A DNA stretch of 64,000 bases, taken from the NCBI GenBank assembly GCA_051645425.1, contig JBOFBH010000012.1:35472-99471 (forward strand), in the 5' to 3' direction. Source of the DNA: Actinomycetota bacterium. GTDB lineage: Bacteria; Actinomycetota; Actinomycetes; Actinomycetales; Angustibacteraceae. Positions 1,127-49,014 of the stretch are shown here, in pieces. Each line of letters opens with the position of its first letter. Within the stretch, counting starts at the first letter, position 1. Made by a program: the position numbers and the translations under genes. The notes under the pieces were generated by a model. That model was not told the DNA's origin, did not search any database, and was given only the letters and a program-made list of their open reading frames with translations.

Positions 1127-1927
1127 TCATGGCAGAAGGGCCACCCCAGCAAAACCGGGGAAACTATCCGGGGAAATTTCACCGGTGAGCTCTTCGGGAT
1201 CGGGACGCCAAAAACGAACGACTCCTGGGTCAAGTAAATCCCAACCATTAAAGAAACTCACGATTTCCTCGTGCGTGCGCAAATACAAAGGCGACGGCGT
1301 GTTCTTGTACATCTGAGCAAGCTGAGCAATCTTCCCGGTTGAATTTTCTGCCGCGTGACTAATCGCCAGGCCACTCCCTGACACCACGAAATCCCGGTAC
1401 CGGGCAACAATCCCGGACGCATCGTCCTCGTCAGAGACGAAGTGCAGCACGGCCACCATGAGAACTCCCACTGGCTGAGTGAAATCCAGCAGCTGAGTCA
1501 CAGCTGGATCTGACAAAACAGCGTTCGGGTCGCGAAGATCAGCCTGAACCATGGCGGTATGAGGGTTGTCCTTCAAAATGAACCGGCTGTGCTCAGCGGC
1601 AACAGCGTCGTGATCGACGTACACCACCTTGGCGTCTGGGTGAATTTCGTGGGCCACCTCGTGCACATTCGCCACTGTCGGAATACCTGAACCAAGATCC
1701 AAGAATTGTTTGATCCCGGACGCTGCGAACTCGCGTACCGCACGCCTAAGGAAGGCCCGGTTAACTTGGGCTAGTTGCGGGATCTCCGGCCACATCTCAA
1801 CAACCTGACGCGCCATTTGCCGGTCAGCTTCAAAGTTGTGAAAACCACCGAGGTAGTAGTCGTAGAGCCGAGCCGCGCTCGGCTTTTCCATGTCAATGCC
1901 CGCAGGGGCCCAGTTCGGTCTCTCCAT
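1127..1927 (-). CDS. SAM-dependent methyltransferase (Methyltransf_19 / PF04672-like)
   Basis: ORF 1127..1999. Motifs ARLYDYYLGGFHNFEADR, NRAFLRRAV, FLDLGSGIPT and VVYVDHDAV are typical of this actinobacterial family. I prefer the start at MERPNW (1927). Confidence 0.75.
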   Translation of the reverse strand: MERPNWAPAGIDMEKPSAARLYDYYLGGFHNFEADRQMARQVVEMWPEIPQLAQVNRAFLRRAVREFAASGIKQFLDLGSGIPTVANVHEVAHEIHPDAKVVYVDHDAVAAEHSRFILKDNPHTAMVQADLRDPNAVLSDPAVTQLLDFTQPVGVLMVAVLHFVSDEDDASGIVARYRDFVVSGSGLAISHAAENSTGKIAQLAQMYKNTPSPLYLRTHEEIVSFFNGWDLLDPGVVRFWRPDPEELTGEISPDSFPGFAGVALLP

Positions 1928-2027
1928 GATCGGACCATACCGATGTTGTGGACGGACCGGAAGGGCTAAAACCGTCCGAAACGCCCACACAATCGACAAC
2001 CGGTGTCTTGTCTATTACTTAATGGTG

Positions 2028-4307: not shown

Positions 4308-4337
4308 AATCTAAACGTTGTCAAGATTCTGAGCGAC

Positions 4338-4352
4338 GTTAAGATTCTTAAC
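4338..4352. promoter_or_regulatory. Candidate TetR operator in the divergent MMPL/TetR intergenic region
   Basis: GTTAAGA-T-TCTTAAC is a perfect 7-1-7 palindrome. A related half-site, ACGTTGTCAAGATTCT, lies about 20 nt upstream (4315-4330). Confidence 0.4.
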
Positions 4353-4383
4353 ATCGTTTACTTTCGTCGAGTAGGATTTCGCT

Positions 4384-5028
4384 ATGTCATCCGCAGCACG
4401 CACCGCAAGCACTCAAATAGGGCGAAGTAAAGCCGTATATCACCATGGCGATCTCGCTGCCGCTCTTGTTGCCGAGGCTTACAAGCGCGTCCAAGTTGGC
4501 GGAGCAGAAACCGTTTCACTCCGTGGAGTAGCCCAAGCAGTAGGCGTCACCGCCAGTGCCGCCTACCATCACTTTGCGGATAAAAACGCACTGCTCTACC
4601 GCGTTTGCGTGCTTAGCAATGACGAGTTGGACCAGCGCGTCCTAACTGCGATGCGAAAAATTCGCGGCCACGACTGGAAGGCGGCAAGCCGCCGGCTACG
4701 AGCCATCGGGATGGCATACATCGATTTCGCGCATGACGAGCCACAGCTATTCCGGCATACTTTTGGCCCATACGCTTGCCCGCCAGAGAACAGCCAAAAC
4801 CTTTCTGTCAGACCAAAGACCAGTAAAGCATTTGAAGCTTTATGCCAAGTTCTCGACGATCTGGACAACCTCAGCGCACTTCACCACCGAGCCGGGTTGG
4901 ACTTATTGGCCTGGGCAGCCGTTCACGGCTTCGCCACCCTGATGATCGACCAGCTCATTACTGACGAGAGCGCCCGCACCGCATTGCTCGATTCCCTCCA
5001 TGCCATCGCAGTCCGACCACCTGAGTAA
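4384..5028 (+). CDS. TetR family transcriptional regulator
   Basis: N-terminal HTH LRGVAQAVGVTASAAYHHFADKNALL. It is divergent from the MMPL gene. Confidence 0.9.
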   Translation: MSSAARTASTQIGRSKAVYHHGDLAAALVAEAYKRVQVGGAETVSLRGVAQAVGVTASAAYHHFADKNALLYRVCVLSNDELDQRVLTAMRKIRGHDWKAASRRLRAIGMAYIDFAHDEPQLFRHTFGPYACPPENSQNLSVRPKTSKAFEALCQVLDDLDNLSALHHRAGLDLLAWAAVHGFATLMIDQLITDESARTALLDSLHAIAVRPPE

Positions 5029-5033
5029 AAGCT

Positions 5034-6023
5034 GTGGATCTCCTGGGGCCGCCCACCGATCTGGCAGGATGGTGGTCGTGGTTACCAGGAGAAACTGTCC
5101 TCGGTCGGTGGGTAAAAACTTTCTTTCATTGGCGGGCCTTAGTGAACACCTGGCTAGATAACCCTGGGCTGCAGAGCTGGGCCACTATTTTCGTGGCGAT
5201 CTGCATTCAAGCTCTCCCTTTCCTCGTCCTTGGTGTGGGTCTTTCAGCTCTCATCAGCGCGTACGTGCCCGCCTCGTTTTTTCAACGGATCCTCCCGCGT
5301 AACTCCGCCGCAGCCGTGCCGGTCGCCGGTCTTTCCGGTGCGGTTCTGCCTGGGTGCGAGTGCGGTGCCGTTCCCATCGCGGCCAGTTTGGTCCGCAGCG
5401 GGGTCGCCCCTGCCGCGGCAATGACGTTTCTTCTCGCTGCGCCTGCAATCAACCCCATTGTGTTGATATCCACCGCAGTGGCCTTTCCCGGGCAACCAGG
5501 TATGGTAGTCGCCCGCTTCGCTGCATCCCTCCTCGTCGCCGTCACAATGGGGTGGTTATGGCTTCGCTTCGGGCGAGGTGAGTGGTTGCGCCTTCCCCGC
5601 CGTGACCACTCACCAGAGGACTCCCGGTTCTCCATTTTCATCGATGCGGCGCGCCATGACTTCCTGCACGCTGGTGGCTTCCTAGTAGTGGGAGGCATGA
5701 TCGCGGCAACAGTGAACATTGTCGTTCCGGATCAAGTGTTCGATGCGGTCGCTGATCGACCCTGGCTTGCGGTGATCACACTCGCGTTTCTCGCCGTCAT
5801 CGTCGCAATCTGCTCTGAGGCCGACGCTTTCGTCGCGGCGAGCTTCGCTGGGATGTCACCGGTCGCACAGCTCGCGTTTATGGTGGTGGGACCGGCCGTT
5901 GACGTTAAATTGATCAGCCTGCAAGCAGGAACGTTCTCCTGGCGGTTTGCCGCCAGATTCGCTCCGAGCACCTTTGTGATAGCAATTGCGGCAACCGTCC
6001 TCGTCTCATTTTTAGTGTGGTGA
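5034..6023 (+). CDS. Polytopic permease (DUF318/ArsP_1-like) with a CxC motif
   Basis: 329-aa hydrophobic ORF with LPGCECGAVPIA. It is followed 4 nt later by its usual TIGR03943-type partner. Confidence 0.7.
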   Translation: MDLLGPPTDLAGWWSWLPGETVLGRWVKTFFHWRALVNTWLDNPGLQSWATIFVAICIQALPFLVLGVGLSALISAYVPASFFQRILPRNSAAAVPVAGLSGAVLPGCECGAVPIAASLVRSGVAPAAAMTFLLAAPAINPIVLISTAVAFPGQPGMVVARFAASLLVAVTMGWLWLRFGRGEWLRLPRRDHSPEDSRFSIFIDAARHDFLHAGGFLVVGGMIAATVNIVVPDQVFDAVADRPWLAVITLAFLAVIVAICSEADAFVAASFAGMSPVAQLAFMVVGPAVDVKLISLQAGTFSWRFAARFAPSTFVIAIAATVLVSFLVW

Positions 6024-6891: not shown

Positions 6892-8016
6892 TCACGCAGC
6901 TATGTTGCGTTGGCCGAGCCAAGGATCGAAACCATCGTCTTGAGTGCACCAGTAGCGACGTCCACGAAGAAGCTCTCGTTCGGTGAGCAATGCGCGCTGA
7001 AAAGCAGCATCAAGGGCCGCCGCGTCAACAGACTTGCTTCCAGTAACTACCAGCCGAGTGGCCGGTGAGCCACGCCAGTCGGCGTGCGCACCAATGCTGA
7101 GCTGGTTACCGGCGCCGTCCCACTCGACTACCGTGTCTGGACGGCCTGGCAGCCATATCGCCCCACGGATCCGCACCCCAGGCGGACACAACTCCGGGAT
7201 TTCAGCGCGGATTCGTTCTGGATGCATCGGCATCGCCGAGCGAAGATCAAGAGTCCAGACGGCAGTGGTATCAACAGCATCATTTGGGCGACGAGTCCGA
7301 GGATCAAGCCACCGATCAATAACGTGAAGATCACATGAGGCCGAGAAAATCTCGGCCCAATCCGCTAGGTGTGGCCCGGGAACCCGAGTAGCGTAAGGCC
7401 CGGCGAGGTGGTCAAGGAGACCAGCCGCGAGCTCATCCACCGGATCGGCGATCAATAATGTGGCTGACTCAACTTGATGGCACCAGGCTTCTCCAACACT
7501 TCGATGGTCATTGTCAGTCAAGTGCAGCTCGCGTTCAGCTAGCAAGTCATCGCCAAGCAAGTCGGCTTCAATTGACTCGCCTGCCACCACTGAAACCACA
7601 CCAGCTAATCGAACACCACCCCGGTCGTGGGAGGGTTCCGCATCTCGAGCGATAGCACGAGCCACTGGAAGGGGGCTTGCCGATACTGGGAGCGCTATCG
7701 CGACCGCGTCCCACCGCCCAGAGCTCACCAATCGGGTCATGGTGGGCATGACATCCTCCCGAAGTGCGCACCCCATGCAGGCGTGGCTCATAGGCGTCAC
7801 CACATGTTCGAGCAAACCTGTTGCATCAAAAACGCGGCGCCGAACGCTTCCTTGAGCAGGCAACAAATCATGTTGCATGACCACTGCAGCAGGATGATCT
7901 ACCACAATGCCGGCTACTGCTGACGTGCGTCGCACTGGATCGAGTGATGACAACACGGCAATTGGAGTCGAGTTATGCGCGTGCGAAGACAATTCAGACG
8001 ATGGAAAGTTGGCCAT
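6892..8016 (-). CDS. COG0523/CobW-like protein with degenerate P-loop
   Basis: ORF 6892..8064. The CobW-type C-terminal region reads IRGAIWLPGRPDTVVEWDGAGNQLSIG, and a CMGCALRED stands where COG0523 has GCxCC. The Walker A position reads SSLDPVRRTS rather than GxxGxGKT. I prefer the start at MANFPSS (8016). Confidence 0.65.
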   Translation of the reverse strand: MANFPSSELSSHAHNSTPIAVLSSLDPVRRTSAVAGIVVDHPAAVVMQHDLLPAQGSVRRRVFDATGLLEHVVTPMSHACMGCALREDVMPTMTRLVSSGRWDAVAIALPVSASPLPVARAIARDAEPSHDRGGVRLAGVVSVVAGESIEADLLGDDLLAERELHLTDNDHRSVGEAWCHQVESATLLIADPVDELAAGLLDHLAGPYATRVPGPHLADWAEIFSASCDLHVIDRWLDPRTRRPNDAVDTTAVWTLDLRSAMPMHPERIRAEIPELCPPGVRIRGAIWLPGRPDTVVEWDGAGNQLSIGAHADWRGSPATRLVVTGSKSVDAAALDAAFQRALLTERELLRGRRYWCTQDDGFDPWLGQRNIAA

Positions 8017-8022
8017 AAATAT

Positions 8023-8039
8023 ATGATAACGGTTCTCAT
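8023..8039 (-). promoter_or_regulatory. Fur/Zur-type palindrome overlapping a -10-like hexamer
   Basis: The minus strand reads ATGAGAAC-C-GTTATCAT, an 8-1-8 palindrome with one mismatched pair that fits TGAnAAnnnTTnTCA. TATCAT ends 7 nt before the A of ATG 8016, which is leaderless-type geometry. Confidence 0.45.
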
Positions 8040-8382
8040 TTAATTCCCCCCGCGATGGGGACAAACTGATACGAACAGTTTGGTTCGAGCTACAACACTA
8101 AATCGGGCATTCGAGCTCTAGACCCGACGACGCTTGCCACAATTTGGGAACTTCCTCATGGGAATCGAATTGCCCCCTCTGATCCAATCTTCCGTAACGG
8201 ATTAACCTACGGCGAGGTCACAGAAGAAATGAGTGTGATTCTCGACGGAAAACTGGTGTCGATGCCGTGGCAAATATTCCTGGCACTTTTCTCGACGTCA
8301 ACGCGTACGGCGCAATCATGCTCCGTGGCGAGCAGATTGTCTTCGTTCCCGCAACTGGCTAACTCAAGGGCTTGAGCAGGAT

Positions 8383-8850
8383 TTACCGGGACGGGCGCCA
8401 GAGGACGACGGCGGTCTGCTGGCCGAACGCGGACCGGGCGGGACGGCGCCCGGTCGTTACGCTTAGCACGTCGCCACTGGGTCCAGCGGCGAAAACCCGA
8501 CGAACCTGGCCACCAGCAAGACGAGCCTGCTCCAACTCGATGAGCGCCTGATCGAGCCGCGCCTCCAACTCAGCCACCCGGGCCCGCAGCGTGAGAATGC
8601 GCTTGATCCCAGCTAAGGAGACACCTTCGTCTTGGGAAAGGCGCTGAATTTCCCTGAGCACGCTGACATCCTGGGCGGAGTATCGCCGGCCACGACCACT
8701 ACTTCGCCCAGGCGAAACCAAACCCAGCCGGTCGTACTGCCGCAATGTTTGCGGATGCATCCCTGCGAGTTGCGCGGCGACCGAAATCACGAAAATTGGG
8801 GTGCTGTCAGTCACGTCAAACTCTGACCCAGACCTAGAACGAGGGATCAT
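8383..8850 (-). CDS. hspR: HspR, MerR-family heat-shock repressor
   Basis: FVISVAAQLAGMHPQTLRQYDRLGLVSPGRSSGRGRRYS is a MerR HTH, and this is the last gene of the dnaK operon. The likely start MIPRS at 8850 overlaps the dnaJ stop. Confidence 0.85.
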   Translation of the reverse strand: MIPRSRSGSEFDVTDSTPIFVISVAAQLAGMHPQTLRQYDRLGLVSPGRSSGRGRRYSAQDVSVLREIQRLSQDEGVSLAGIKRILTLRARVAELEARLDQALIELEQARLAGGQVRRVFAAGPSGDVLSVTTGRRPARSAFGQQTAVVLWRPSR

Positions 8851-9907
8851 CACGCTTCCCCGCTGATCCGGACGCACCGTTCCACAGCCAATCTTTCGAG
8901 GCCCGTGACGCAGCCTCCATGAGCTCAGCTCGTGGATTAGCGGTCGCGGTCGCTGCGGCGTATGCCTCAACGGCATCTCGGGCCGCGCCGACCAAACGTT
9001 GCGGGACCACCACCTGAACCACAACGCGAAGGTCACCCGTGGTTTTCCCGTGTTTGACCCCTCGACCACGGACTCTCAGCGTGCGCCCCGACGGCGTCCC
9101 CGCGGGGACTTTCACTCGGACCGTACTTGGGCCGCCCTGCGGTGCGAGCAGTGGGACATCGATGGTCGCACCCAACGCGACCTCAGCAAAACTCACCGGC
9201 ACCGTGACGACAAGATCATCGCCCTGACGACTGAAGACTGGGTCGGGTTCGACAGTGACCGTCACCAGAAGATCGCCTGCTGCAGCACCTGGGTCACCGG
9301 GATTTCCCTTGCCGCGCAACCGAATTCGCTGCCCGTCACGAACCCCGGATGGAATCCGGACCGTCACTGGCCGCCCATTGGGCAGTTGAAGGGTAACCGT
9401 CGCACCTTGGACCGCGTCACGGAAAACCAGCGATGTTGTCGCGGCCACATCGGATCCACGTTGCGGCCCGGCGGGGCCTCCGTGACCGGGAAAACCACCT
9501 CCGAAACCACCGCCCCCCATGCCGCGGAGAAGCTCTTCCATGTCGATATTGCCCGTACGAAATTGAGCTCGCCGAGCCCGCGCCCCACCACTGGCACCAC
9601 CGCTAAAAAGGCCACCAAGGAGATCCTCAAAGCCAGCACTGGCACCACTTCCACCGGGAGCGAACCGGGGCCCGCCATGCGTCATCGTCCGAATGGTGTC
9701 GTACTGCTGGCGCTGTTCGGCATCGGAAAGTACCGAATATGCCTCGCCAATCTCCTTGAAACGAGCTTCATTGCCGCCCGTGGCATCGGGGTGATGCGCC
9801 CGAGCGAGCCGACGATATGCCTTCTTAATGGCCGCCTGATCAGCATCAACGGGCACCTCAAGGGCGGCGTAGAAATCCTTCTCAAACCAGTCTTGACCGG
9901 CCATCAA
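8834..9907 (-). CDS. dnaJ: J-domain co-chaperone (DnaJ/CbpA type, no zinc finger)
   Basis: J domain DFYAALEV...AYRRLARAHHPD, a G/F-rich linker and the C-terminal substrate-binding domains are present. The translation contains no cysteine at all. Confidence 0.85.
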   Translation of the reverse strand: MMAGQDWFEKDFYAALEVPVDADQAAIKKAYRRLARAHHPDATGGNEARFKEIGEAYSVLSDAEQRQQYDTIRTMTHGGPRFAPGGSGASAGFEDLLGGLFSGGASGGARARRAQFRTGNIDMEELLRGMGGGGFGGGFPGHGGPAGPQRGSDVAATTSLVFRDAVQGATVTLQLPNGRPVTVRIPSGVRDGQRIRLRGKGNPGDPGAAAGDLLVTVTVEPDPVFSRQGDDLVVTVPVSFAEVALGATIDVPLLAPQGGPSTVRVKVPAGTPSGRTLRVRGRGVKHGKTTGDLRVVVQVVVPQRLVGAARDAVEAYAAATATANPRAELMEAASRASKDWLWNGASGSAGKRDDPSF

Positions 9908-9969
9908 CGCCGCCCTTCTTAAACCTCGATACCAACAAATCGACTACCTTCACCTGCGAGGTACCCCAA

Positions 9970-10599
9970 TCAGGGATCAGCGACCGCGACGCGAGCTGCC
10001 CGCAGGATTCGCTCCCCGGCGCGATACCCCGGTTGGAGCACTTGAACCACTGTGGGGACGTCTGTTCCTTCAGGCAGGTCGGCCTCGGTATGCATCAACG
10101 CTTCGTGAACTGCGGGGTCAAACGGCTCACCTGGTTCGCCAAACCGGGTGAGCCCAAAACGCTCCAACGCGGCTTCAAGCTTGTCGGTGATAGCGGCGAA
10201 CGGGCCACCATTGAGATCACCGTGCTGACGAGCTAGCTGCACATCGTCCATCACTGGAAGTAACGACTCTAAAACTGATGCCACCGCGAAGTCGCGGGCA
10301 ACGTCACGATCCCGTTCTACTCGCTTGCGATAGTTGACGTACTCAGCTTGCAACCGTTGTAAATCAGCTAACCGCTCAGCCGCAAGTACGGCGTCACGTG
10401 AGCTCGCCTGATCTTCCTCTGGAACAGAAGTCCCGGAACCGTTGCTATCCGGGCTTTCTGAAGCCACCTGATCCCGCTGCCCGTCAATATCAGCAGGATC
10501 TCGGACGGCGCCGGTTTTTGGATCAATCCGCCGCCGATCTCGGACGACGGGGCCCTCATCTTCTTCTGAGTGCCCCGCCCCGCTGAGGGTGTCCGTCAT
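9970..10599 (-). CDS. grpE: Nucleotide exchange factor GrpE
   Basis: Sits between dnaK and dnaJ. Shows [24 protein letters not shown] and [16 protein letters not shown]. Confidence 0.95.
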
Positions 10600-12503
10600 G
10601 CCTGGGCCTTTCCTGCACCCGGGTTATCGGCGTCATCAGATGAGGCACTTACCGGCTCGTCATCCACCACCTCGGCTTCAACGACATCGTCATCCGCCTG
10701 AGTTCCCGCCGCATCTGAAGCAGGTGGCCCAGCCTCACCAGCCGCAGCCTCGGCGGCGTACATCGCCTGACCAATGGCTTGACTGGCAGTGGCCAGCGCC
10801 TCCGTTTTCGCTTTTACCTCCGCGACTGGCACCTCCGCGGAAAGCGCCTGCCGCAACTCGGCGATGGCCTTCTCTACGTCGGCTTTCGGCTCAGCCGGGA
10901 CCTTCTCTTCGTTGTCCTTCAGAAATTTCTCCGTTGACCACACTAACTGCTCAGCTTGGTTGCGGGTTTCAGCTTCTTCCCGGCGCTGCTTGTCTTCGGC
11001 AGCGTGCTGTTCAGCGTCTTTGACCATGCGATCAATTTCTTCTTTTGGCAGCGCGCTGCCGCCGGTGATGGTCATGGCCTGCTCTTTACCAGTGCCTCGA
11101 TCTTTCGCGGAGACGTTGACAATGCCGTTGGCGTCGATGTCGAACGTCACCTCAATCTGCGGCATACCCCGGGGCGCGGGAGCGATTCCAGTGAGGTCAA
11201 ACGTGCCAAGGGGTTTGTTGTCGCGCGTCATTTCTCGCTCACCTTGGAACACCTGGATGGTCACACTGGGCTGGCTGTCAGCAGCCGTGGTGAACACTTC
11301 ACTGCGCTTGGTCGGGATCGCCGTGTTGCGTTCGATGAGCCGAGTCATCAGCCCGCCTTGGGTTTCAATTCCCAGCGAAAGCGGCGTGACGTCAATCAGC
11401 AGCACGTCCTTACGCTCGCCTTTAAGCACACCTGCCTGTAATGCCGCACCAACAGCCACGACCTCATCAGGGTTGACGCCTTTATTGGGTTCCTTGCCAC
11501 CGGCAAGATTTTTGACCAACTCGGCAACTGCGGGCATCCGAGTGGAACCGCCCACGAGGACGATGTGGTCGATGTCAGCGACAGCGACAGCGGCGTCTTT
11601 GATCACGTTGGCGAATGGCTCTTTGGTGCGGTCCAGCAAATCAGCCGTCATTTGCTCGAACTGGGCCCGAGTGAGCGTCTCATCCAAGTGGATGGGGCCA
11701 TTCTCAGTCATTGACAAGTACTGCAGCGAAATATTCGTGCTCATCGAGCTCGACAGCTCTTTTTTCGCTTGCTCAGCGGACTCCCGCAAACGTTGCATAG
11801 CGATTTTGTCTTTCGCCAGATCGATGCCGTACCCCGTGTTGACGGTGCGCAGCAGATGATCGACGATGCGCTGATCCCAGTCGTCACCACCGAGGTCGTT
11901 GTGCCCACTGGTGGCACGAACTTGAATGGTGGAGAAGTCATCTTCGTCTTTGCCTACTTCGAGCAATGAGACGTCAAACGTGCCACCGCCTAAGTCGAAG
12001 ACCAAAATGAGTTCATCTTCTTTGCCTTTTTCTAACCCGTAGGCGAGCGCCGCGGCGGTGGGTTCGTTGATGATGCGCAAGACATTCAGGCCAGCGATTT
12101 CACCGGCCTCTTTAGTGGCTTGACGTTCGGCGTCATTGAAGTACGCCGGGACGGTAATCACCGCATCGGTGACATTTTCGCCGAGATAGGACTCCGCGTC
12201 ACGCTTGAGTTTGCCGAGAATACGAGCGCTGATCTCTTGCGGGGTGTAACTCTTGTCGTCGATGTCGACGGTCCATGCCTTACCAACATGCCGCTTTACG
12301 GACCGAATGGTGCGATCTACGTTGGTGACGGCTTGGCGTTTGGCGATCTCACCCACGAGCACCTCACCGTTTTTGGCGAACGCCACCACTGAAGGGGTCG
12401 TCCGACCACCTTCAGCGTTGGCGATCACTGTCGGCTCGCCACCCTCCAAAACGGACACCACCGAGTTGGTCGTCCCCAGATCGATACCGACCGCGCGTGC
12501 CAT
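10596..12503 (-). CDS. dnaK: Molecular chaperone DnaK (Hsp70)
   Basis: [22 protein letters not shown] and the rest of the Hsp70 sequence. ATG at 12503 is preceded by AGAGGAGAA. Confidence 0.98.
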
Positions 12504-24995: not shown

Positions 24996-27095
24996 ATGGG
25001 GGTGAGAGTAAGTCGACTACCTCGGATTCCCCCACTCGGGCGACGAAGCAGGAAAACTAACGGAGTGAGTTGGATAGATCCCACCCTGCCCCGCGCCGTT
25101 CGTTCATCTCGACTGGCAACGATCGGGTTTGTGATCGTCCTAATCGGGCTCACCGTGTTCGCGCTCTGGACGTCCCACCAAATGAACACCGTAGGAGATC
25201 GCGCACTACAGGCCAGCCGATTGTCCGACCATTACTCGATGGCCGCCCAGCACGCTGCCGCCGAAGAATCCATCGAACGCGAATACCGGCTTACGCCCTC
25301 AGCTGAGACGCTCAGCGAATTTGCTGTCGTCGCCAATGAACTCGATGACTCTCTCAACCGAATTCAACGAGATGGGTTCCCCGCCGATGACGCCAGGGCA
25401 GAACAAATCCGCGCTGATCACCGGGAATTTCTTGCTGCCAGTGAGCGGCTCTTCGCGGCCCAACAAGCAGGAGATCTCGCACTCGCCGCGACGATAGACG
25501 ACACTGAAACCGATCCACTGTTCGAGCGAATCGCGGCGAACCTCAACAACGCAGCCCGCGGAAAACACGATGCCGCAGTCGGCGCACTAGAGGATCTCAA
25601 TCGCCTGCAACATTTTGTTGCTTCCGCAACACCGATCGTCTTCGTCAGCGGAATGGTACTCATCGTGGTGTTCGGGGTGATGCTGCGCCGCGTCCGCCGG
25701 CTCATTGACGACCAGCGGGAACATGCCACACACCATTCCTTACATGACGCGCTTACGGGCCTACCCAACCGAACCCTACTCGCCAAGCGATTCGAAAAAG
25801 CACTCCACGCCAGTCATGGCGCTGGGACTCACACTGGGCTTCTGCTCATTGACCTAGACCGCTTCAAAGAGATCAACGACACTCTGGGGCACCATTATGG
25901 CGACCGGGTGCTCACCGAAATCGGCCCCCGTCTCGCACCCGAACTACGCGACGTAGACACGGTGGCACGACTTGGCGGTGATGAATTCGCTGTCCTACTT
26001 CCCACAGTTGACAGCCTCACCGCAGCGGCCCGAGTCGCGGACCGACTCCGATCAGCACTCACCACACCCATCACCATTGATGGCATCGAACTGGGCATAG
26101 AAGCAAGTATCGGTGTGGTCATCTCTGGGATTCACGGCGATGATCCGAACACGTTGATGCGTTGTGCTGACGTCGCGATGTACATCGCGAAAGAACAGGG
26201 AACCGGAGTTTTTATCTACGACGCGGACGATGACCAGCATTCCCCACGCCGTTTACAACTTCTGGGCCAACTGCGCCGCGGCATGGAAAACCGGGAACTT
26301 GTGCTGCATTACCAACCCACAATCAACCTTGACACCGGTCGCATGTGCCGGGTTGAAGCGCTGGCCCGCTGGGCACATCCCGAGCTGGGGCTGTTGTCGC
26401 CATGCGAGTTCATCCCGCTCGCTGAGCACACCAGCCTGATTAGCGGATTAACCGAGTACGTGCTCGACGCGGCGCTCGCGCAAATGCGGGCTTGGTTGGA
26501 CATCGGCCACACCATTCCGCTGTCGGTCAATCTTTCCGCCCGGAATTTACACGACAAGAATCTGGTGAGTACCGTCCAGGAAAAACTCACTCATTACGAC
26601 ATCCCCGCCGCCATGGTCACGTGTGAGGTGACCGAGTCAGCGATCATGGTGGAGCCAGAACGCTCCCGGACTGTCATCACGAGTCTGCACGATTTGGGGG
26701 TTCGATTGTCCGTCGATGATTTCGGTGCTGGGTACACCAGCCTCGCCCAGTTAAAAACTCTACCCCTGGACGAGATCAAAGTGGATCGGTCTTTCGTCAC
26801 CGCCATGGGAAGCGACCCGAACGCGACCGTGATCGTCCGCAGCGTTATCGAGCTGGGCCACAACTTGGAGCTGAGTGTCGCCGCGGAAGGAGTCGAATCA
26901 CCCGAGGTGCTCACTACCCTTACCGACTACGGTTGCGACACCGCTCAGGGGTACTACTTCTCTCGCCCCGTCACCGCCAGGCAAATCTCCTCCTATCTCA
27001 ACGCGGGGCTAGCTGGCAGTGTCACCACACGCGGTCCGATAAAACTGGGAAATCGGCTCGATACCTTTGCAGCGCAACGAGATGTGACGTTGTAG
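24996..27095 (+). CDS. Membrane-anchored GGDEF-EAL (c-di-GMP) signalling protein
   Basis: Two TMs flank a helical sensor region. The GGDEF domain shows HDALTGLPNR and RLGGDEF; the EAL domain shows EALARW, DDFGAGYTSL and KVDRSFV. The last 23 full codons before the final four sense codons (VTL) and the stop lie in repeat copy 1. Confidence 0.9.
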   Translation: MGVRVSRLPRIPPLGRRSRKTNGVSWIDPTLPRAVRSSRLATIGFVIVLIGLTVFALWTSHQMNTVGDRALQASRLSDHYSMAAQHAAAEESIEREYRLTPSAETLSEFAVVANELDDSLNRIQRDGFPADDARAEQIRADHREFLAASERLFAAQQAGDLALAATIDDTETDPLFERIAANLNNAARGKHDAAVGALEDLNRLQHFVASATPIVFVSGMVLIVVFGVMLRRVRRLIDDQREHATHHSLHDALTGLPNRTLLAKRFEKALHASHGAGTHTGLLLIDLDRFKEINDTLGHHYGDRVLTEIGPRLAPELRDVDTVARLGGDEFAVLLPTVDSLTAAARVADRLRSALTTPITIDGIELGIEASIGVVISGIHGDDPNTLMRCADVAMYIAKEQGTGVFIYDADDDQHSPRRLQLLGQLRRGMENRELVLHYQPTINLDTGRMCRVEALARWAHPELGLLSPCEFIPLAEHTSLISGLTEYVLDAALAQMRAWLDIGHTIPLSVNLSARNLHDKNLVSTVQEKLTHYDIPAAMVTCEVTESAIMVEPERSRTVITSLHDLGVRLSVDDFGAGYTSLAQLKTLPLDEIKVDRSFVTAMGSDPNATVIVRSVIELGHNLELSVAAEGVESPEVLTTLTDYGCDTAQGYYFSRPVTARQISSYLNAGLAGSVTTRGPIKLGNRLDTFAAQRDVTL
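27015..27083. repeat. 69-bp direct repeat, copy 1
   Basis: GGCAGTGTCACCACACGCGGTCCGATAAAACTGGGAAATCGGCTCGATACCTTTGCAGCGCAACGAGAT is identical base for base to 29173-29241. Confidence 0.95.
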
Positions 27096-27171
27096 CGATT
27101 TCACACCTCTTTAGCCCCCTTCCGGCGTTGCGGTTCCCTACAGTGGCAGGTGCAGGGAGGCCAACTTAGAG

Positions 27172-27183
27172 CCCCCCCCCCCC
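27172..27183 (+). repeat. Homopolymeric C12 tract
   Basis: I counted 12 consecutive C. The tract ends 20 nt before the lectin ATG (27204) and 7 nt before its GAGGGAGAG SD-like sequence. Confidence 0.95.
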
Positions 27184-27203
27184 GCTTAGCGAGGGAGAGA
27201 TCC

Positions 27204-27629
27204 ATGGGAATCCGCACCATAACTATGGCGGCAGCAATCGCGGTGACTGGAGTCGTTGGCATTGCGCCCAGCGCCAATGCAGCAACAAACGACTATAAGA
27301 ACCGCGCTACTTCTTATTGCCTAGATAGCAACTCATCGCGAACGGTGTATACCAGAGGCTGTAATAGTGGTTCTTATCAGAAGTGGGTGGATTCATCGGC
27401 TGGGAGCGGGCGCCTTCTGAAGAATCTCGCAACCTCTTACTGCCTGGACAGCAATAGCAGCGGAAATGTTTACGCTAACGCGTGTTCATCTGGGAATCGC
27501 TACCAACAGTGGACTATTTCAAGTGGTGTCATAAAGAATGTAGCGACGGGGCGCTGCCTGGACAGCAATACTTCCCGCGAGGTCTACACCCGAACCTGCA
27601 ATAGCGGATCATTCCAAAAGTGGGACTGA
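27204..27629 (+). CDS. Secreted ricin-type beta-trefoil lectin, (QxW)3
   Basis: Signal peptide MGIRTITMAAAIAVTGVVGIAPSANA. Three internal repeats follow: YCLDSNSSRTVYTRGCNSGSYQKW, YCLDSNSSGNVYANACSSGNRYQQW and RCLDSNTSREVYTRTCNSGSFQKW. Confidence 0.85.
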   Translation: MGIRTITMAAAIAVTGVVGIAPSANAATNDYKNRATSYCLDSNSSRTVYTRGCNSGSYQKWVDSSAGSGRLLKNLATSYCLDSNSSGNVYANACSSGNRYQQWTISSGVIKNVATGRCLDSNTSREVYTRTCNSGSFQKWD

Positions 27630-27647
27630 GAGATTAAGGATCTCTTT

Positions 27648-27681
27648 GGTGAGCGGCGCCCCGCACTGGGCGCCGCTCACC
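27648..27681 (+). terminator. Hairpin after the lectin gene
   Basis: GGTGAGCGGCGCC-8 nt-GGCGCCGCTCACC is a perfect 13-bp GC-rich stem 19 nt after the stop. There is no clear U-tract. Confidence 0.55.
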
Positions 27682-27758
27682 AACGCCAGAAAGGAAGCTC
27701 CGCACTGTTTAAGCAGCGCTTTGAACTCTTCCAAAGTTTTAACAAATTACATCGAGAC

Positions 27759-29147
27759 TTGAGCGTGACTATCGCGATCTCTTTAGCTGCAATCATTCTT
27801 TACGCCTGGGTGGGGTTAGCACGGTATTCATCTGGCAGGAGCGGAAATTACGACTTAGGTATTTTCACGCAGGCAGCTCAAGGATGGGTAAACGGAAAGG
27901 GCCCCTACTCCGAAATTAAAGGAATTACTCTTTTCGGTGACCACTTCAGCCCCATCACCGTTCTGTTTGGCGCAGGGTATGCACTGTGGCCTGACCCACG
28001 CTCCTTGATCGTTCTGCAAGCGATCACTCTTGGCGTTGCTGTAGCCATTCTGAGCGGTTACGCCTGGAGTAGCTTGCGGCCACGTGAGGCGGCGTTTGTT
28101 TCTTTCGTTGCGGTTGCTTCTTCGCCTTTCATGGGCGCGGCTGCCTTTGATGTCCATGAAACGGGTTTAGGGGCACCTCTGGTGGCATGGCTCGCTCTCT
28201 CACTCATACACAGGAAATTTGCCCAAGCCATCGCTGCTTCTTGTGCTTGCTTATGCATTAAAGAAGATCTCGGCTTAATGGTAATCATGGCTGGGCTAGC
28301 GTGGTACACGATGCATCGTCATCACACTCAGCGGCCTGTTGCGCGACAGGCGCTCACCATCAGTGGGCTCGGATTTGCTGGTTTTACGATAGCCAATGCC
28401 GTCATTATTTTGCAGAACCCTAGCAATACCAGCCCGTACCTTCATCTTCTTTTTGGTGACACGAACACCACAACGTCAGGACCATTCATCACTCGTGTGG
28501 TTCCAATACTGCTTGTAGTTGGCTTAAGTGGATTAGCTATCAAACAGCCAATTCTCCTCCTCGCAATTCCGACGTTGGCATGGCGCGTTGCGTCGAGTAA
28601 CCCCGGCTACTGGTCATACAAATTTCATTACGACGCAATTCTGCTACCCCTATGCATCGTTGCCTTAACTCACGCCCTGAAAAGTCGGCCGCTAGCCGAG
28701 CCAGGGAGCATAAAGAACTCGCGTGTCGTTTTCTTTTCGGCGCATCAGGCGCAGCGGACCGTTGTTCTGACTGCGGCGGTTCTTGCGATGATTCCAGGTT
28801 TAGTGCGCTTCACGAATGCGGCACCATGGCGAACCGACATCACTACTGTTTCTGTGGACCAACGCACCGCATCTCGTTTCGTTGCCCACCTTCCCCGAGG
28901 CTCCCTTCTTCTTACCAGCGAGCGTTTGGGGCCTCACCTGATTCAGCAGCACCGCGTGAAACTCCTGGACTCTGGCCACCCCACGCCTGCTCGTTGGGCC
29001 CTAGTCGATCTCAAACCCTCCACGATGGAAATCCATGCGCACGCCCAAGAGCTTTACTGGCGAAGCCTGAGTGATCCCCACGCGAGTGTTCGACGCGAGG
29101 GAAACGTTGCCTTTATTGCCTTCCACCGTAACCGTCCGCTTCCGTGA
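27759..29147 (+). CDS. Polytopic membrane protein, DUF2079-like (GT-C-like glycosyltransferase fold suspected)
   Basis: 462-aa ORF with a TTG start and about 10 TM segments. The N-terminal RYSSGRSGNYDLGIFTQA...FGDHFSP pattern is what I recall for DUF2079. Confidence 0.65.
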   Translation: MSVTIAISLAAIILYAWVGLARYSSGRSGNYDLGIFTQAAQGWVNGKGPYSEIKGITLFGDHFSPITVLFGAGYALWPDPRSLIVLQAITLGVAVAILSGYAWSSLRPREAAFVSFVAVASSPFMGAAAFDVHETGLGAPLVAWLALSLIHRKFAQAIAASCACLCIKEDLGLMVIMAGLAWYTMHRHHTQRPVARQALTISGLGFAGFTIANAVIILQNPSNTSPYLHLLFGDTNTTTSGPFITRVVPILLVVGLSGLAIKQPILLLAIPTLAWRVASSNPGYWSYKFHYDAILLPLCIVALTHALKSRPLAEPGSIKNSRVVFFSAHQAQRTVVLTAAVLAMIPGLVRFTNAAPWRTDITTVSVDQRTASRFVAHLPRGSLLLTSERLGPHLIQQHRVKLLDSGHPTPARWALVDLKPSTMEIHAHAQELYWRSLSDPHASVRREGNVAFIAFHRNRPLP

Positions 29148-29172
29148 CCACATCACTTCGGATCGCGATGAC

Positions 29173-29241
29173 GGCAGTGTCACCACACGCGGTCCGATAA
29201 AACTGGGAAATCGGCTCGATACCTTTGCAGCGCAACGAGAT
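29173..29241. repeat. 69-bp direct repeat, copy 2
   Basis: Identical to 27015-27083. On the minus strand it encodes the C-terminal residues (DLVALQRYRADFPVLSDRVW, stop at 29180) of the CN-hydrolase. Confidence 0.95.
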
Positions 29242-30001
29242 CCAGCTCAGCGGTGAAGGTTTGAGCGTTAACGCCCGCATGGGCGATGACCTGACCGGTC
29301 GGTGACACTATCTGGCTTAGCCCGGCCATGCGGTGACCACTGTGCTCACCGGCAGTGTTACACCCCACGAAGTAGCTTTGGTTCTCAATCGCCCGGGCTT
29401 GCCCAAGGATCGTCCAATGCGCGGCACGGGCCTCCGGCCAGGCCGCGGGGACCACCAACACCTCTGCGCCCGCGTCCACCAACCGGCGAAAAAGCTCTGG
29501 GAAGCGCACGTCGTAACAAGTAGCCAACCCAAGGTGGACGTCCCCGCCACTGACCGGGAGCCGCACCCGTGGCGCTGCGATTGCATCCCCACCATTCAGC
29601 AGCACCTTCTCGCCACCGGCAAAACCAAACCGGTGGACTTTGCGATACGTCGCCAAGATCTCACCGTCCGGGCCAAGCAACACCGACGTGTTCCACCGGG
29701 TCGTTGTCGCCGGAACGCCCCCCTGTGCACCCGATTCCGTCACGGTTTCCACGATGGAACCCGCATGCAAAACTACCCCGACATTAAGCGCGGCCCGGCG
29801 CAACGCAGTCACCGTCGGGCCGTCGAGTGACTCGGCGCGGTCGCCCCAGTGCCGGTACGCGAACCCACCCGGCGCCCACAGCTCCGGTAAGACCACCAGG
29901 TCATGACCAACGCACTCACGGACCAGTCCCACTACCCGCCGGACTCGGTCCGGAACAGGCTCATCATCGCCGTATCCCACTTGAATGACCGCTACCTTCA
30001 T
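29180..30001 (-). CDS. Carbon-nitrogen hydrolase (nitrilase superfamily)
   Basis: LVVLPELW, RKVHRF and ATCYDVRFPELFR provide the Glu-Lys-Cys triad context. The start ATG shares one base with the upstream stop (TGATG). Confidence 0.88.
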   Translation of the reverse strand: MKVAVIQVGYGDDEPVPDRVRRVVGLVRECVGHDLVVLPELWAPGGFAYRHWGDRAESLDGPTVTALRRAALNVGVVLHAGSIVETVTESGAQGGVPATTTRWNTSVLLGPDGEILATYRKVHRFGFAGGEKVLLNGGDAIAAPRVRLPVSGGDVHLGLATCYDVRFPELFRRLVDAGAEVLVVPAAWPEARAAHWTILGQARAIENQSYFVGCNTAGEHSGHRMAGLSQIVSPTGQVIAHAGVNAQTFTAELDLVALQRYRADFPVLSDRVW

Positions 30002-32145
30002 CAGGCACCATCCTGCTTTTGGCCGTTCGGTAGCTGGCCACCTAACCCTCCACCGTGCGATTGCCTCCGGTCGAGGCCCGCTAATGCGGCTAACCGGTCG
30101 TTGTAGGCACGGAGCTCAGCTTCACCGTCCCGGTCTGCTTGTCGGTCTCGTCGCCGCGCTTCCAGCGAATCAGAACGCGCCCACGCCACCGCAATCCCCA
30201 ATGCCAGCGCCACCGCCGGGATCTCCCCTAAACCCCAAGCGATCGCTCCACCTTGTTGTTGATCGAGCAGCGGCGCCACGCCCCACGGTCGATCCAGTTC
30301 ATGGAGCACAGCACCAGCCAACACTTGGGTGCCACTCGCCAACGAGACCCCAAAAAAGGCGTGGAACGCCATCGTGGCGAACAACACAACCAGGCGCATC
30401 GGATATGCCGGGCGGGCCGGCCCAGGGTCAACACCCACTAGCACCGACGCGAAGAGATACCCCGATGCTAGGAAATGCGCGTGCATCAGGACGTGTCCGG
30501 TGTGGGTCTGAATCGACCACTCAAACAACGGCGAGTAGTAGAACACCACCAGACTGCCGGCGAAAATCACTGCCGCGACCGGGGCTCGACTCAGCAATGC
30601 TAAGAAACGAGAGTGCAGCACGGCCAGCAACCACTCCCGGGGCCCGTGACTGCCATCACGCCGGGCGGTGAGCCCGCGCATCGCTAATGTCATCGGCGCC
30701 CCTAAAACCAATAACGGCGGTACGACCATTGATACCACGAGGTGGCCCAGCATGTGCGAACTGAACAGCACCCTCCCGTACACCCCGGGCGATCCGCTAG
30801 TCGCCCAGATCAAGATGAGACACCCGGCCACAAACGACAACACGCGTAACACCGGCCAACTGTCACCACGGCGCCGTAGCCGACGCGCACCCCCCACGTA
30901 CAACCCGAGCGCGCCAACCGCCACCGCTAACCACAGCAAATCCACTCGCCACGCCGTGAACCATGCCGACGCAGTCAGTGGCTCCGGCATCGGATACCCC
31001 GTCAGAATGGTGGCAGCATCTGGGTCGCTCTGAGCATTACCCGTTGGTGGTGCGCTATTGGCCAATGCCACCGCCACCCCAATCGTGACCACCATCAGGA
31101 CCAGCTCCCCCGCAAACCAACGCCAAAACGCCGCCGCCTGCGAGACGCCCGAGGACACCAACGCGGGGATGGTTCTCCGGCGATGCCGGACCCCCAGTGC
31201 CCCCAGCGCAATCAATGCCATCCCCTTCATCACCATCAACACGCCATACTGACTCCCTAGATCAGCCCACCCCCCGAGCTGCGCCCACGCGTTGATCAGA
31301 CCGGACACCGCGACCGCGGCAAACGCCCACCCGGCCAGAACGGAGTACCGGCGGATCACCACCGGAACGGCATCGGCGAGGTTCGTACGGGCCCACGTGA
31401 TAGCGAGCGCGCCGCCCACCCACACCGCAGCCCCGATCACGTGCGCAGCCAACGAGGTCACTCCCAGCTCGTGATCAGTCTGGTTCGCGGAATGCCCGAC
31501 GTATGCCAGCGGAATCAGAGCCGCGAGCGACAACACCATCAGCCAACCCACGGTGAACAGTCGCAACGCCAACATTGCCCCACCGGCTACCACCGTCACC
31601 ACCACAGCGCTGATCACCCACGCGCGCAACGGCTCCAACACAAAAAGGTACTGCCCTAGTTGGGTAGCGAAACCAGAACTTGTGGGTTCCTGACCAGAGA
31701 TCCGCGCGTACGTCAGCACGGCGGTCATCGCGGCGGCACTGGCCCACACTGACGCCGATAACGCAGCCACCCGAGTCAACCGCAAGGCCACTGGCCGCAA
31801 AATGCCCTGGGATCGACCGTCCGTCCGGCCAGGCAAATGGACCGCGGAATTCGGCACTAGTGCGGCAGCAACCACCAGCAACCCGATAGTGAGACTGGCA
31901 GCCAAATCGACGACGACCGTCATCACCGGCAAACCCCAACGCACGAGAAAACCCGGATCAGCAATGACACTGGCCCCCGCGCCCCCGGTCAGCAGCAGTC
32001 CGGCGACCGCAGTCATTGTTGCGGCAAGAATCAGAGCAGCAAATATGACTGGCCGTCGCCCGCCATGGTGACCCTTCCGTGTCGCCGTAGACGACACCTT
32101 TGAGGCTCGGGAAGTATCAGGCACCCCACCAGAGTAGGCACCCAT
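30001..32145 (-). CDS. CopD-domain / caa3-type CtaG-domain fusion membrane protein
   Basis: 714 aa with more than 14 TMs. The C-terminal half carries SSHMLGHLVVSMVVPPLLVLGAP, typical of cytochrome oxidase assembly factor CtaG. The N-terminal half is CopD-like. Confidence 0.8.
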   Translation of the reverse strand: MGAYSGGVPDTSRASKVSSTATRKGHHGGRRPVIFAALILAATMTAVAGLLLTGGAGASVIADPGFLVRWGLPVMTVVVDLAASLTIGLLVVAAALVPNSAVHLPGRTDGRSQGILRPVALRLTRVAALSASVWASAAAMTAVLTYARISGQEPTSSGFATQLGQYLFVLEPLRAWVISAVVVTVVAGGAMLALRLFTVGWLMVLSLAALIPLAYVGHSANQTDHELGVTSLAAHVIGAAVWVGGALAITWARTNLADAVPVVIRRYSVLAGWAFAAVAVSGLINAWAQLGGWADLGSQYGVLMVMKGMALIALGALGVRHRRRTIPALVSSGVSQAAAFWRWFAGELVLMVVTIGVAVALANSAPPTGNAQSDPDAATILTGYPMPEPLTASAWFTAWRVDLLWLAVAVGALGLYVGGARRLRRRGDSWPVLRVLSFVAGCLILIWATSGSPGVYGRVLFSSHMLGHLVVSMVVPPLLVLGAPMTLAMRGLTARRDGSHGPREWLLAVLHSRFLALLSRAPVAAVIFAGSLVVFYYSPLFEWSIQTHTGHVLMHAHFLASGYLFASVLVGVDPGPARPAYPMRLVVLFATMAFHAFFGVSLASGTQVLAGAVLHELDRPWGVAPLLDQQQGGAIAWGLGEIPAVALALGIAVAWARSDSLEARRRDRQADRDGEAELRAYNDRLAALAGLDRRQSHGGGLGGQLPNGQKQDGA

Positions 32146-47382: not shown

Positions 47383-49014
47383 CTAAGCGGCGGCAAGTAT
47401 GCGGGCTCTGGCCAAATGTGCTCGCTTGCTAGAGCCCGCCGTTTGGTGCGTGTGGTGCTTAGGAAATGTCGAGTTCCTCATGTGGGGGACTTTGATGGTG
47501 CGAGCACCGGGTTCGCCACCAAGGATCACTTTGCGACGTGACTCGTTGTTCGCAGTGTTGATTTCGATCAGGTTCTTCACTGGGTTGGCGAGCACCTGAA
47601 CGTAGTACGTGCCGTTTGGTAAATCGGTGACATCAAACGATTGACCAGGCAAATACTGGCTGTAGGTGTCACCCCAACCGGACGGCAACACTTCCCGTAG
47701 ACCCATCGAGTTGGGGCTGCCGCAGGCACTGGACAACCCAGTTGAGTCGGTTTGCCATTCGGCACCGGGGACGCTGAGGTCAACGGAGTCGGTTGGCACC
47801 AGGCAGAAGGATTCCTTCTCGCTGCGCACTACCTTTTTACCGTCCGAACCCAACAACTGGTACGTCGCGAAGTCTGTGAAATACCAGTGAGTGTGCCCTG
47901 GGCGTGGGTCATAAGCCAGTGTTCCCCGGTCTACTGAACTGACCTTCTTTCCTTGCTGATCGAAGAAGACCTGGTGGGCGGACATCTCCGAGGCACCGGG
48001 ATCACGGAAACCGTCCACGACTAACGGCCCCGGGCCGGCATTCCATACTGTGGCACCGAACGCGAGGTACTGATGGCCGTCTTCACCACCGTTTTGCTCA
48101 GAACTAGTGAGCTCAAAACCGAAGGCTGGCAACGACCGTAGATCAGGTTGCACATTCTTTGGCACGGACGGCTTCGGCGCTGGCGAAGCGGAGAGACTCT
48201 GAGTGCGTTGTTCCTGCGAGCCCTCTTCATCACGAGCGTGCTCTTCCCCTGGGCCGTGGCTGTGATTCTCCTCGGTGACAGTCGAGGCGCCACCTAAATC
48301 GGTTAAGTTAAGGCGTCCGGGGTGACGCCTGGAGCAGACCGCACACCACCAGCCGCGAATGGCCCTTCCTTAGTTGGAGCGAAACCATCAACGTGCCCAG
48401 CTTCACGAGCCCGAGCAAGTGAATCCGGCAGTTCAAGCCCCGATTTACTGGCCTTCCCTGGGGTGCTGATTCGGCTTAACGCTTCGCCTTCTGGGACTGG
48501 CGCATCTTGGTCTGTGGCTCGGATGACCTTCAGCGGAAACTTGGCGGTCACATCTTTGGTGGACAATTTCAGGGCGGATCGCCACGCTGGCGTAATTTCC
48601 ACCTGAACGTTATAGGTGCCAACCGCGAGGTTCGGCAGTTCCACGTATTCCCCGATTGGCATCGCCCATCCACGTTGAAGGCCCATCACCGTGCCAAGGG
48701 GTGACCTGCCGCCGGGAACCACTGGTGGCAACAACTTCCGCCTTAACTGGATCTTTGTAACTGGCGCGCTTCGCCCGAATTTCCAACGGGCTGGACATTC
48801 CGACGCTGAGATATGCGCCCAAGTCCCCGTAAAGCCCGTCGTTGCTGTACTTCTCGATCACCGCTGGATTGGTTGCGACTACCACCTTGAGCGAAAGCCC
48901 CGGTAGGGCACCGTCCGCCACTTGGGCGCCCGCGGTGGCACTCCCTGCCACTAGAAAAGGAGTGATTGAAGCGGCCACCCAAGGCCGTCGCGACTTCCAC
49001 TGCTGAGATTTCAC
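47383..49014 (-). pseudogene. Secreted lysyl-oxidase-like protein, reading frame broken twice
   Basis: Three consecutive same-strand ORFs in different frames. ORF 48610..49014 has the signal peptide MKSQQWKSRRPWVAASITPFLVAGSATAGA. ORF 48303..48734 is the middle piece. ORF 47383..48165 is the LOX catalytic-domain homologue (GHTHWYF.., KESFCL, GWGDTYSQYLPGQSFDVTDLPNGTYYVQVLANP...NN). Confidence 0.55.

Follow-up and report, generated by a model that had tools for sequence, protein, structure and literature searches.

The locus and its direct repeat

The DNA considered here, a window of 64 kb from a metagenome-assembled 'Actinomycetota bacterium' deposited at NCBI, an uncultured organism, contains two convergent genes, one encoding a GGDEF-EAL protein and the other a CN-hydrolase, with an insert (X) carrying a lectin gene and a DUF2079 gene lying between them. 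The insert is bracketed by two copies (R1 and R2) of a direct repeat, an arrangement written below as A-R-X-R-B, where A and B are the flanks. The explanation given most weight, tentatively and with the balance still slightly against it, is that a foreign two-gene module was acquired by an insertion that duplicated 69 bp of the recipient's own sequence. The features concerned are as follows, with positions counted along the window.

24996..27095, plus strand: GGDEF-EAL protein (Pfam GGDEF 249-403, EAL 425-658), convergent with the CN-hydrolase gene
27015..27083, no strand assigned: direct repeat copy 1 (R1), a displaced or extra CN-hydrolase 3' end
27084..29172, plus strand: insert (X), 2,089 bp, with a 120-nt leader, lectin gene, hairpin, DUF2079 gene and 25-nt trailer
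27172..27183, plus strand: C12 homopolymer, 20 nt upstream of the lectin start codon, read directly
27204..27629, plus strand: ricin-type beta-trefoil lectin, 141 aa, secreted (Pfam Ricin_B_lectin, 6e-16; signal peptide)
27646..27683, plus strand: hairpin with a perfect 16-bp stem, between the lectin and DUF2079 genes
27765..29147, plus strand: DUF2079 polytopic membrane protein, 460 aa from the NCBI start (Pfam DUF2079, 7e-34; P0121 is 100% identical)
29173..29241, no strand assigned: direct repeat copy 2 (R2), comprising 7 nt past the stop, the stop codon and the final 59 coding nt of the CN-hydrolase gene
29180..30001, minus strand: CN-hydrolase (nitrilase-superfamily amidase; Pfam CN_hydrolase), the target gene
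30001..32145, minus strand: CopD/CtaG-type cytochrome oxidase assembly protein (Pfam), overlapping the CN-hydrolase start

The two copies of the repeat match at 69/69 positions, as had been reported in a sequence-only reading of this DNA, and their starts are 2,158 bp apart. Beyond either end of the 69-mer the copies are abruptly dissimilar. It is the longest repeat of the window, and a search for further copies, which the same reading had proposed for the whole genome, returned only these two within the 64 kb, even when three mismatches were tolerated. A matching 69-mer arose in 0 of 100 dinucleotide-preserving shuffles, and only one other perfect direct repeat of at least 60 nt was found across 2.24 Mb of compared loci, a rough background from which tandem arrays were excluded, as were the methyltransferase paralogues in tandem at three loci (L180-182). 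The duplication is real and not a product of chance. No tRNA or Rfam match was found at the repeat; the sole tRNA gene of the window, tRNA-Gly, lies 2.8 kb away and is unrelated to it in sequence, and Rfam and promoter/terminator scans of the region recovered nothing but this gene. The rare TTA codon within the repeat was considered as a mark of foreign origin and rejected, as TTA accounts for 11.5% of Leu codons in the genome.

The GGDEF-EAL protein is 699 aa long, and on the plus strand R1 supplies its residues 674-696 (GSVTTRGPIKLGNRLDTFAAQRD); VTL and a stop (27093-27095) complete the gene, whose final 26 codons consist of R1 and three codons of X. On the minus strand R2 holds the CN-hydrolase stop codon (29180-29182) and, ahead of it, 19 codons and two bases of a 20th, ...LVALQRYRADFPVLSDRVW. 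Both assignments had been made from the sequence and were borne out by translation. In an alignment of 17 CN-hydrolase homologues the C-terminus encoded by R2, R..FPVL.DRR[LW], was invariant or nearly so. Because this C-terminus is conserved across homologues, the 69-mer is the genuine end of the CN-hydrolase gene, with R1 as the extra copy.

The repeat extends past the coding sequence, and the 7 nt beyond the CN-hydrolase stop lie outside that gene, while at R1 they are continuous with the GGDEF-EAL tail. Relatives differ at these 7 nt, where a small open reading frame (ORF) starts instead. From this comparison the 69-mer includes junction sequence particular to this lineage, and the repeat would therefore have been templated from the lineage's own locus. 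It would either have been copied in situ at insertion or been brought by a circle of conspecific origin; an attP already present in a distant donor is an unlikely source.

The two genes are affected by the repeat to very different degrees. Alignments of the GGDEF-EAL protein with its homologues (n=120) stop at a median residue of 667, beyond which the homologues have unrelated tails of a median of ~33 residues. Since the EAL domain ends at 658 and the alignments at this median, the tail supplied by the repeat is dispensable. The earlier statement that both genes were left intact is consequently meaningful for the CN-hydrolase and loses its force for the GGDEF-EAL protein, as there the repeat lies in a non-conserved tail; for the same reason the intactness of the CN-hydrolase would be the only real constraint at the site. 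The duplication seems to have arisen as a side effect of the way the DNA entered, and not as an adaptation that separated overlapping genes.

Two further observations were made on the GGDEF-EAL protein. Whereas its neighbours in the NCBI record had 100% matches in the protein collection, it had none, and it may be annotated in the deposited record as a pseudogene or with another start. Its best matches, to metagenome proteins, were 57-58% identical, with Pseudomonas and betaproteobacterial proteins nearly equal at 51-53%.

The insert and its cargo

The insert has a GC content of 0.539 compared with 0.591 for the window; the AT-richness described from the sequence is true, but moderate only. 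Its two genes have the lowest GC among the 45 genes of the window (z = -3.0 and -2.2), and their GC at third codon positions (GC3) is likewise low (z = -1.6 and -2.0). A comparison of GC and codon usage with the flanks had been proposed, and it showed the insert to be deviant in GC; the codon-usage likelihoods of the two genes (z = -1.4 and -1.7) fall at the low end of the range and are not outliers. Non-coding DNA within the insert amounts to stretches of 120, 129 and 25 nt. The C12 run sits in an otherwise weakly conserved leader and could be either a slipped-strand switch for the cassette or an error of homopolymer length in the assembly.

The lectin has three internal repeats, an internal triplication, and gave a weak match to the Rv1419-family lectin model. 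An AlphaFold model of the DUF2079 protein (pLDDT 87.7) matched GT-C glycosyltransferases in Foldseek, among them ArnT, PglB/OST, ALG12 and AftD, with E values of 1e-5 to 1e-4, and also AftA. A search of PDB sequences with the DUF2079 profile gave no match and the fold search was required for the assignment; on this basis the protein models confidently as a predicted GT-C-fold glycosyltransferase. Since the model matches these enzymes, the cargo is plausibly a cell-envelope glycan module. This supports the label 'surface-related' that had been attached to the two genes. The model also has an extracytoplasmic beta domain at the C-terminus, and an invariant NYDLGIF motif near the N-terminus provides a candidate catalytic-loop aspartate. 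A literature search found no paper on DUF2079.

The lectin-DUF2079 pair in other genomes

The closest homologues of the DUF2079 protein, encoded at the loci L083 and L084, are 52% and 45% identical to it and their genes are preceded, in the same orientation, by lectin genes whose products are 74% and 70% identical to the lectin of the window. Conservation within the module is therefore unequal, at 70-74% for the lectin and 45-52% for the DUF2079 protein. A hairpin follows the lectin stop in the window, in L083 (7877-7915) and in L084 (about 560-600); the sequence of this strong hairpin differs among the three, with folding energies of -35 to -42 kcal/mol. It is likely to be a terminator or attenuator between a highly expressed lectin and the predicted glycosyltransferase. 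In three hosts, represented by the window, L083 and L085, GC3 is lower in the module genes than in any of their neighbours. From these comparisons the gene pair is a module that travels between genomes.

The contexts of the pair are varied. In L083 it lies (7404-9316) 7 kb from a tRNA-Arg(ACG) with a tyrosine integrase gene and an HTH_17 excisionase-like gene directly after it (1-1634 for the three) and an SLT-domain gene; the tRNA, integrase and HTH_17 gene apparently represent a classic integrated actinomycete element with the module as cargo. Non-coding DNA on either side of the pair is unusually extensive there (about 940 and 515 bp), and no second att copy was found within the contig. L084 is a contig of 2,144 bp and is not circular. 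In L085-L089 the lectin gene is divergently oriented and the context different, while in L173 (2536-6271, 7817-9226) a DUF2079 homologue, 40% identical, occurs without a lectin beside a Mu-type transposase. The neighbours in L173, a Mu-transpos_C transposase, a 336-aa gene and a serine resolvase, form a Tn5053/Tn402-like transposition module, and the DUF2079 protein of this locus was found on 11 contigs from several sequencing runs.

No flanking repeats were found around the module in L083, L084 or L085. Among the window, L083 and L084 there was no homology of flanking DNA outside coding regions, apart from a weakly similar leader, and comparison of the 69-mer with the module-bearing loci gave only chance 11-12-mers. 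Plasmid and phage collections and IMG/VR contained only relatives of the DUF2079 protein that were 25-31% identical. Homologues of this protein are common in Kineosporiales-like actinobacteria.

Relatives of the locus and a possible earlier gene order

The best relatives of the CN-hydrolase are Angustibacter-like, at 62-66% identity; against the NCBIfam deaminated-glutathione-amidase-like model the protein scored below the family cut-off. CopD/CtaG is its upstream operon partner and lies on the conserved side of a break in synteny. The order E2 ... CopD/CtaG, CN-hydrolase is kept in four relatives (L081, L169, L170 and L172), in which a conserved small membrane ORF comes next, its start abutting or overlapping the CN-hydrolase stop. 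This ORF is missing from the window. In three of the relatives (L170 6816-7094, L172 6820-7185, L081 8816-9148) it encodes 92-121 aa with the motif M.FY..V.AVLLP.SYKRSGSMTHYV..TGAP.VW and begins at the CN-hydrolase stop or one base later, and the operon of CopD/CtaG, CN-hydrolase and small ORF breaks in the window a few bases at most from the stop codon (29173-29182).

Next in L170, and convergent, are genes for an acyl-CoA dehydrogenase and a hypothetical protein followed by cbtA and cbtB (7107-10459). In L180 an orthologous block (8178-11733), 59-82% identical, follows a GGDEF-EAL gene whose product is 56% identical to that of the window, which itself holds no gene of the block. This suggests an older order of GGDEF-EAL, cbtB-cbtA-hypothetical gene-acyl-CoA dehydrogenase, small ORF and CN-hydrolase, in which ~4.5 kb once lay between the two genes, and the direct abutment of GGDEF-EAL and CN-hydrolase in this lineage would be derived. 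The arithmetic of the sequence-only reading was reproduced, as a computed collapse of the repeat gives a GGDEF-EAL protein ending ...AAQRDPAQR, with its stop at 29254-29256 and an overlap of 77 bp between the genes (29180-29256). Since the relatives suggest an intervening block, an ancestor with overlapping convergent genes is hypothetical, the 'un-overlapping' of the two genes is conjecture and the site would be a hot spot of rearrangement. Upstream of its GGDEF-EAL gene L180 has four tandem Methyltransf_19 paralogues (2462-5976, also in L181 and L182) with perfect repeats of up to 116 nt, which suggest gene conversion or recent tandem amplification; a single homologue is present in the window (1127-1999).

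Attempts to find an empty site were made in several collections. A scan of genome contigs with the CN-hydrolase gave a best match of 51% identity among the matches listed, so that the source genome was possibly missed, and an exact-protein look-up for the same protein found no record. A wobble-degenerate 69-mer pattern had 0 matches in metagenome contigs, and in clusters at 90% identity each of three window proteins was the only member, from one contig. Neither the protein collection nor the metagenome contigs searched contained conspecific sequence, and no empty site was found in them. A repetition of the CN-hydrolase 3' end downstream of the gene was found in 0/82 loci, mostly of distant relatives, with only chance 14-18-mers.

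Mobility genes and classes of element rejected

The sequence-only reading had seen no recombinase, transposase or terminal inverted repeats, and this was upheld. No integrase, transposase or resolvase was found in the insert or among the ~45 Pfam-annotated genes of the window, no terminal inverted repeats were found at the ends of the insert, and the integrase, excisionase-like protein, TniA, 336-aa neighbour and resolvase of L083 and L173, used as queries, had no match in the window. The genes of the window have core functions, including dnaK-grpE-dnaJ, dnaB, ssb, dcd, pabB, branched-chain keto-acid dehydrogenase and purB. One ORF (47383-48165) matched the lysyl-oxidase domain (PF01186, 6e-11), a family best known in animals.

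Three classes of element were rejected. A DDE transposon or insertion sequence (IS) would not account for a structure without terminal inverted repeats, without a transposase and with a duplication of 69 bp. An integron gene cassette was dismissed as there is no integrase in the window and the flanks are perfect coding direct repeats, not imperfect palindromic attC sites. A tRNA-att site was dismissed as there is no tRNA at the repeat.

A proposed insertion with duplication of the target

The reading of the structure as an insertion, which had already been made from the sequence, is the most economical one, as the insert is compositionally deviant, the gene pair is seen elsewhere and the repeat is native. 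Two further observations support it. The site is, in comparison with the four relatives, a break in synteny. The end margins of the insert are only 120 and 25 nt of non-coding DNA, and because there is so little it contains no decayed gene remnants.

It is proposed that the horizontally acquired lectin and GT-C module was inserted directly behind the CN-hydrolase gene. Two single-strand breaks 69 nt apart would have opened the target; with both overhangs filled in, a linear piece of foreign DNA would then have been joined between them, giving A-R-X-R-B. The joining may have been carried out by host repair enzymes, either by end joining of the Ku/LigD type or by polymerase template switching. 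Selection would have required only that the CN-hydrolase remain whole, and the intact-looking GGDEF-EAL tail would be incidental. Once formed, the two 69-bp repeats would permit RecA-dependent loss of the cassette as a circle of 2,158 bp, and also its amplification. The empty-site allele is predicted to read ...GGGGCTAGCT-[69-mer]-CCAGCTCAGCGG and the junction of a circle or tandem amplification ...GATCGCGATGAC-[69-mer]-GTGACGTTGTAG.

A number of substantial caveats must be applied to this proposal. The single-copy ancestor A-R-B is inferred, the collections searched having yielded no empty site, and the codon-usage deviation of the cassette is modest. Published cases mostly concern restriction-modification systems, whose own nuclease has been proposed to cut the target, and the present cargo is without a nuclease. 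That a fragment captured at random would contain exactly two whole genes and just 145 nt besides is a priori unlikely, and the insert resembles a defined unit. The presence of Ku/LigD in the host genome is an assumption, and to our knowledge the staggered-break step has no citable demonstration in any bacterium.

Other explanations

The alternative that survives best, although it is unlikely, is that of an integrase-less mini integrative element, or a stripped remnant resembling a cis-mobilizable element (CIME), with an attachment site that bears a copy of the CN-hydrolase 3' end, for which a tyrosine recombinase acting in trans would have recombined the 69-bp identity segments to give attL and attR. 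That one repeat holds the 3' end and stop of the target gene, leaving it undisrupted, is a hallmark of such elements (PMC5704250; PMC2440964). The repeat, moreover, reaches no more than 7 nt past the stop, the insert is compact and well delimited as a unit, and L083, the closest same-orientation module on a longer contig, has the tRNA-Arg, tyrosine integrase and HTH_17 gene 7 kb away. Set against this, neither the insert nor the 27 kb on its left and the 35 kb on its right contain an integrase, there are no pseudogene remnants, and the 25 nt from the DUF2079 stop to R2 leave no room for arm sites there. The second gene 3' end that other elements at the site might have left is absent from all 82 CN-hydrolase loci, distant as most of these are, and the modules of L083, L084 and L085 are not flanked by repeats. 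A repeat of 69 bp exceeds the 8-60 bp given for the att repeats of integrative and mobilizable elements (IMEs) (PMC5704250), and with 7 locus-particular nt in the repeat the recombinase would need to recognise a newly formed site.

Less likely again is a Campbell-type event, in which a circle of 2,158 bp, consisting of X and one R and derived from a conspecific whose CN-hydrolase gene already had the cassette behind it, entered by a single RecA-dependent crossover in the 69 bp of homology. A single crossover with such a circle yields exactly A-R-X-R-B with perfect repeats. Khasanov et al. are said to have reported in 1992 that the minimal homology between plasmid and chromosome in B. subtilis is about 70 bp, an order of length that the repeat shares. 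The 7 nt past the stop also imply a donor of the same lineage. The problem is only shifted, however, as X would still have had to come to lie beside R by an illegitimate event in the first place; none of the collections searched contains conspecific sequence, and the circle is a postulate without a sign in the data. Quite doubtful too is the idea that the lectin and GT-C unit is itself a truly mobile, recombinase-less mini-cassette of actinobacteria that cycles as a circle of ~2.16 kb, enters at gene ends and copies tens of target bases.

It is improbable that the cassette is old and native, with R1 as debris of a local rearrangement such as the loss of the cbtBA-acyl-CoA dehydrogenase block and small ORF. 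The interval between GGDEF-EAL and CN-hydrolase has clearly been remodelled compared with relatives, the codon usage of the cassette is inside the range of the window and DUF2079 homologues are frequent in Kineosporiales-like actinobacteria, all of which would suit such a history. A perfect 69/69 repeat abutting both ends of the unit would nevertheless need at least two precisely placed events, the two genes are the lowest in GC of 45, and the nearest DUF2079 homologues are 36-52% identical compared with 66% for the CN-hydrolase.

The weakest alternative, an assembly artefact in which the assembler threaded into an empty chromosome (A-R-B) the loop of a separate R-X-R molecule (a circle or tandem array), would suit a contig (408,567 bp) of a metagenome-assembled genome from NCBI and a repeat below typical read length whose perfect identity a collapsed graph node would produce, but is very improbable, as both junctions (R-X and X-R) must exist physically and a real molecule of X and R sharing the 69 bp is still needed, 150-nt reads span the repeat, and the region is otherwise non-chimeric with intact genes and continuous reading frames.

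Comparison with known systems

The sequence-only reading had concluded that no described mechanism fits cleanly, which is wrong as far as patterns are concerned, since both insertion with long target duplication (PMC2853133) and att repeats (PMC5704250) have been described. The former was recognised by Nobusato, Uchiyama, Ohashi & Kobayashi (Gene 2000) and Furuta, Abe & Kobayashi (NAR 2010; PMC2853133). The inserts of this class are <20 kb, without mobility genes and of deviant GC, and the repeats, of 46-423 bp, are a duplicated unique target that often overlaps gene 3' ends (PMC2853133). The class was found by genome comparison, consists mainly of restriction-modification systems, has no established mechanism and includes one listed actinobacterial case, from Clavibacter (PMC2853133); it has been said to extend to 'and other DNAs' (PMC3457768). 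The structure in the window agrees with it in its small insert of 2,089 bp and two genes without a mobility gene, its flanking repeats of >30 bp, its overlap with a gene 3' end and its deviant GC. It differs in its cargo, a lectin and a predicted GT-C glycosyltransferase in place of the restriction-modification systems that are almost always found in published cases and are usual for the class, though not strictly defining. It also differs in that the published cases were proven by an empty-site genome and the single-copy ancestor here is inferred. Without an empty-site comparator, the mechanism is not made testable by this case.

Integrative elements offer the second comparison. Att repeats that take in the target gene's 3' end are standard for them and CIMEs are their integrase-less derivatives (Guedon et al. 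2017, PMC5704250), the integrative and conjugative elements of actinomycetes (AICEs) having been treated by te Poele et al. 2008 (PMC2440964). The likeness lies in the direct repeats, one of which (R2) carries the target 3' end and keeps the gene functional, in the accessory cargo of deviant composition and in the related copy of the module beside tRNA-Arg and a tyrosine integrase in L083. The differences are that the insert has no integrase, excisionase, transfer genes or decayed remnants, that the target is the end of a protein gene, not a tRNA, with a DNA sequence not conserved between genera, and that no other element was found at this site in the 82 loci, mostly of distant relatives. An IME, AICE or prophage would have an integrase beside the att site, where there is no such gene and, with 25 nt from the last gene to the repeat, no room for one. 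The pseudogenes and long non-coding stretches that mark the decay of a CIME are also lacking.

Two other systems share single features with the locus. Like Campbell-type single crossovers it has the shared homology duplicated on both sides with perfect identity, but no circle or replicon is seen here. Plasmids, phages and laboratory constructs provide most of the known cases of Campbell-type integration. Like DDE transposons and insertion sequences it has an insert flanked by a direct target duplication, but terminal inverted repeats and a transposase are theirs and neither is present here. Target duplications of transposons are <10 bp, or up to 19-26 bp for IS1630 (PMC2853133).

On present evidence the structure is a further case of a described pattern and not a new mechanism. 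With a cargo that is not a restriction-modification system, in an uncultured actinobacterium, it weakens the idea of a break made by the cargo's own nuclease and suggests host repair enzymes in its place, and it shows how a pair of lectin and predicted GT-C glycosyltransferase genes, likely a cell-envelope glycan module, spreads between actinobacteria.

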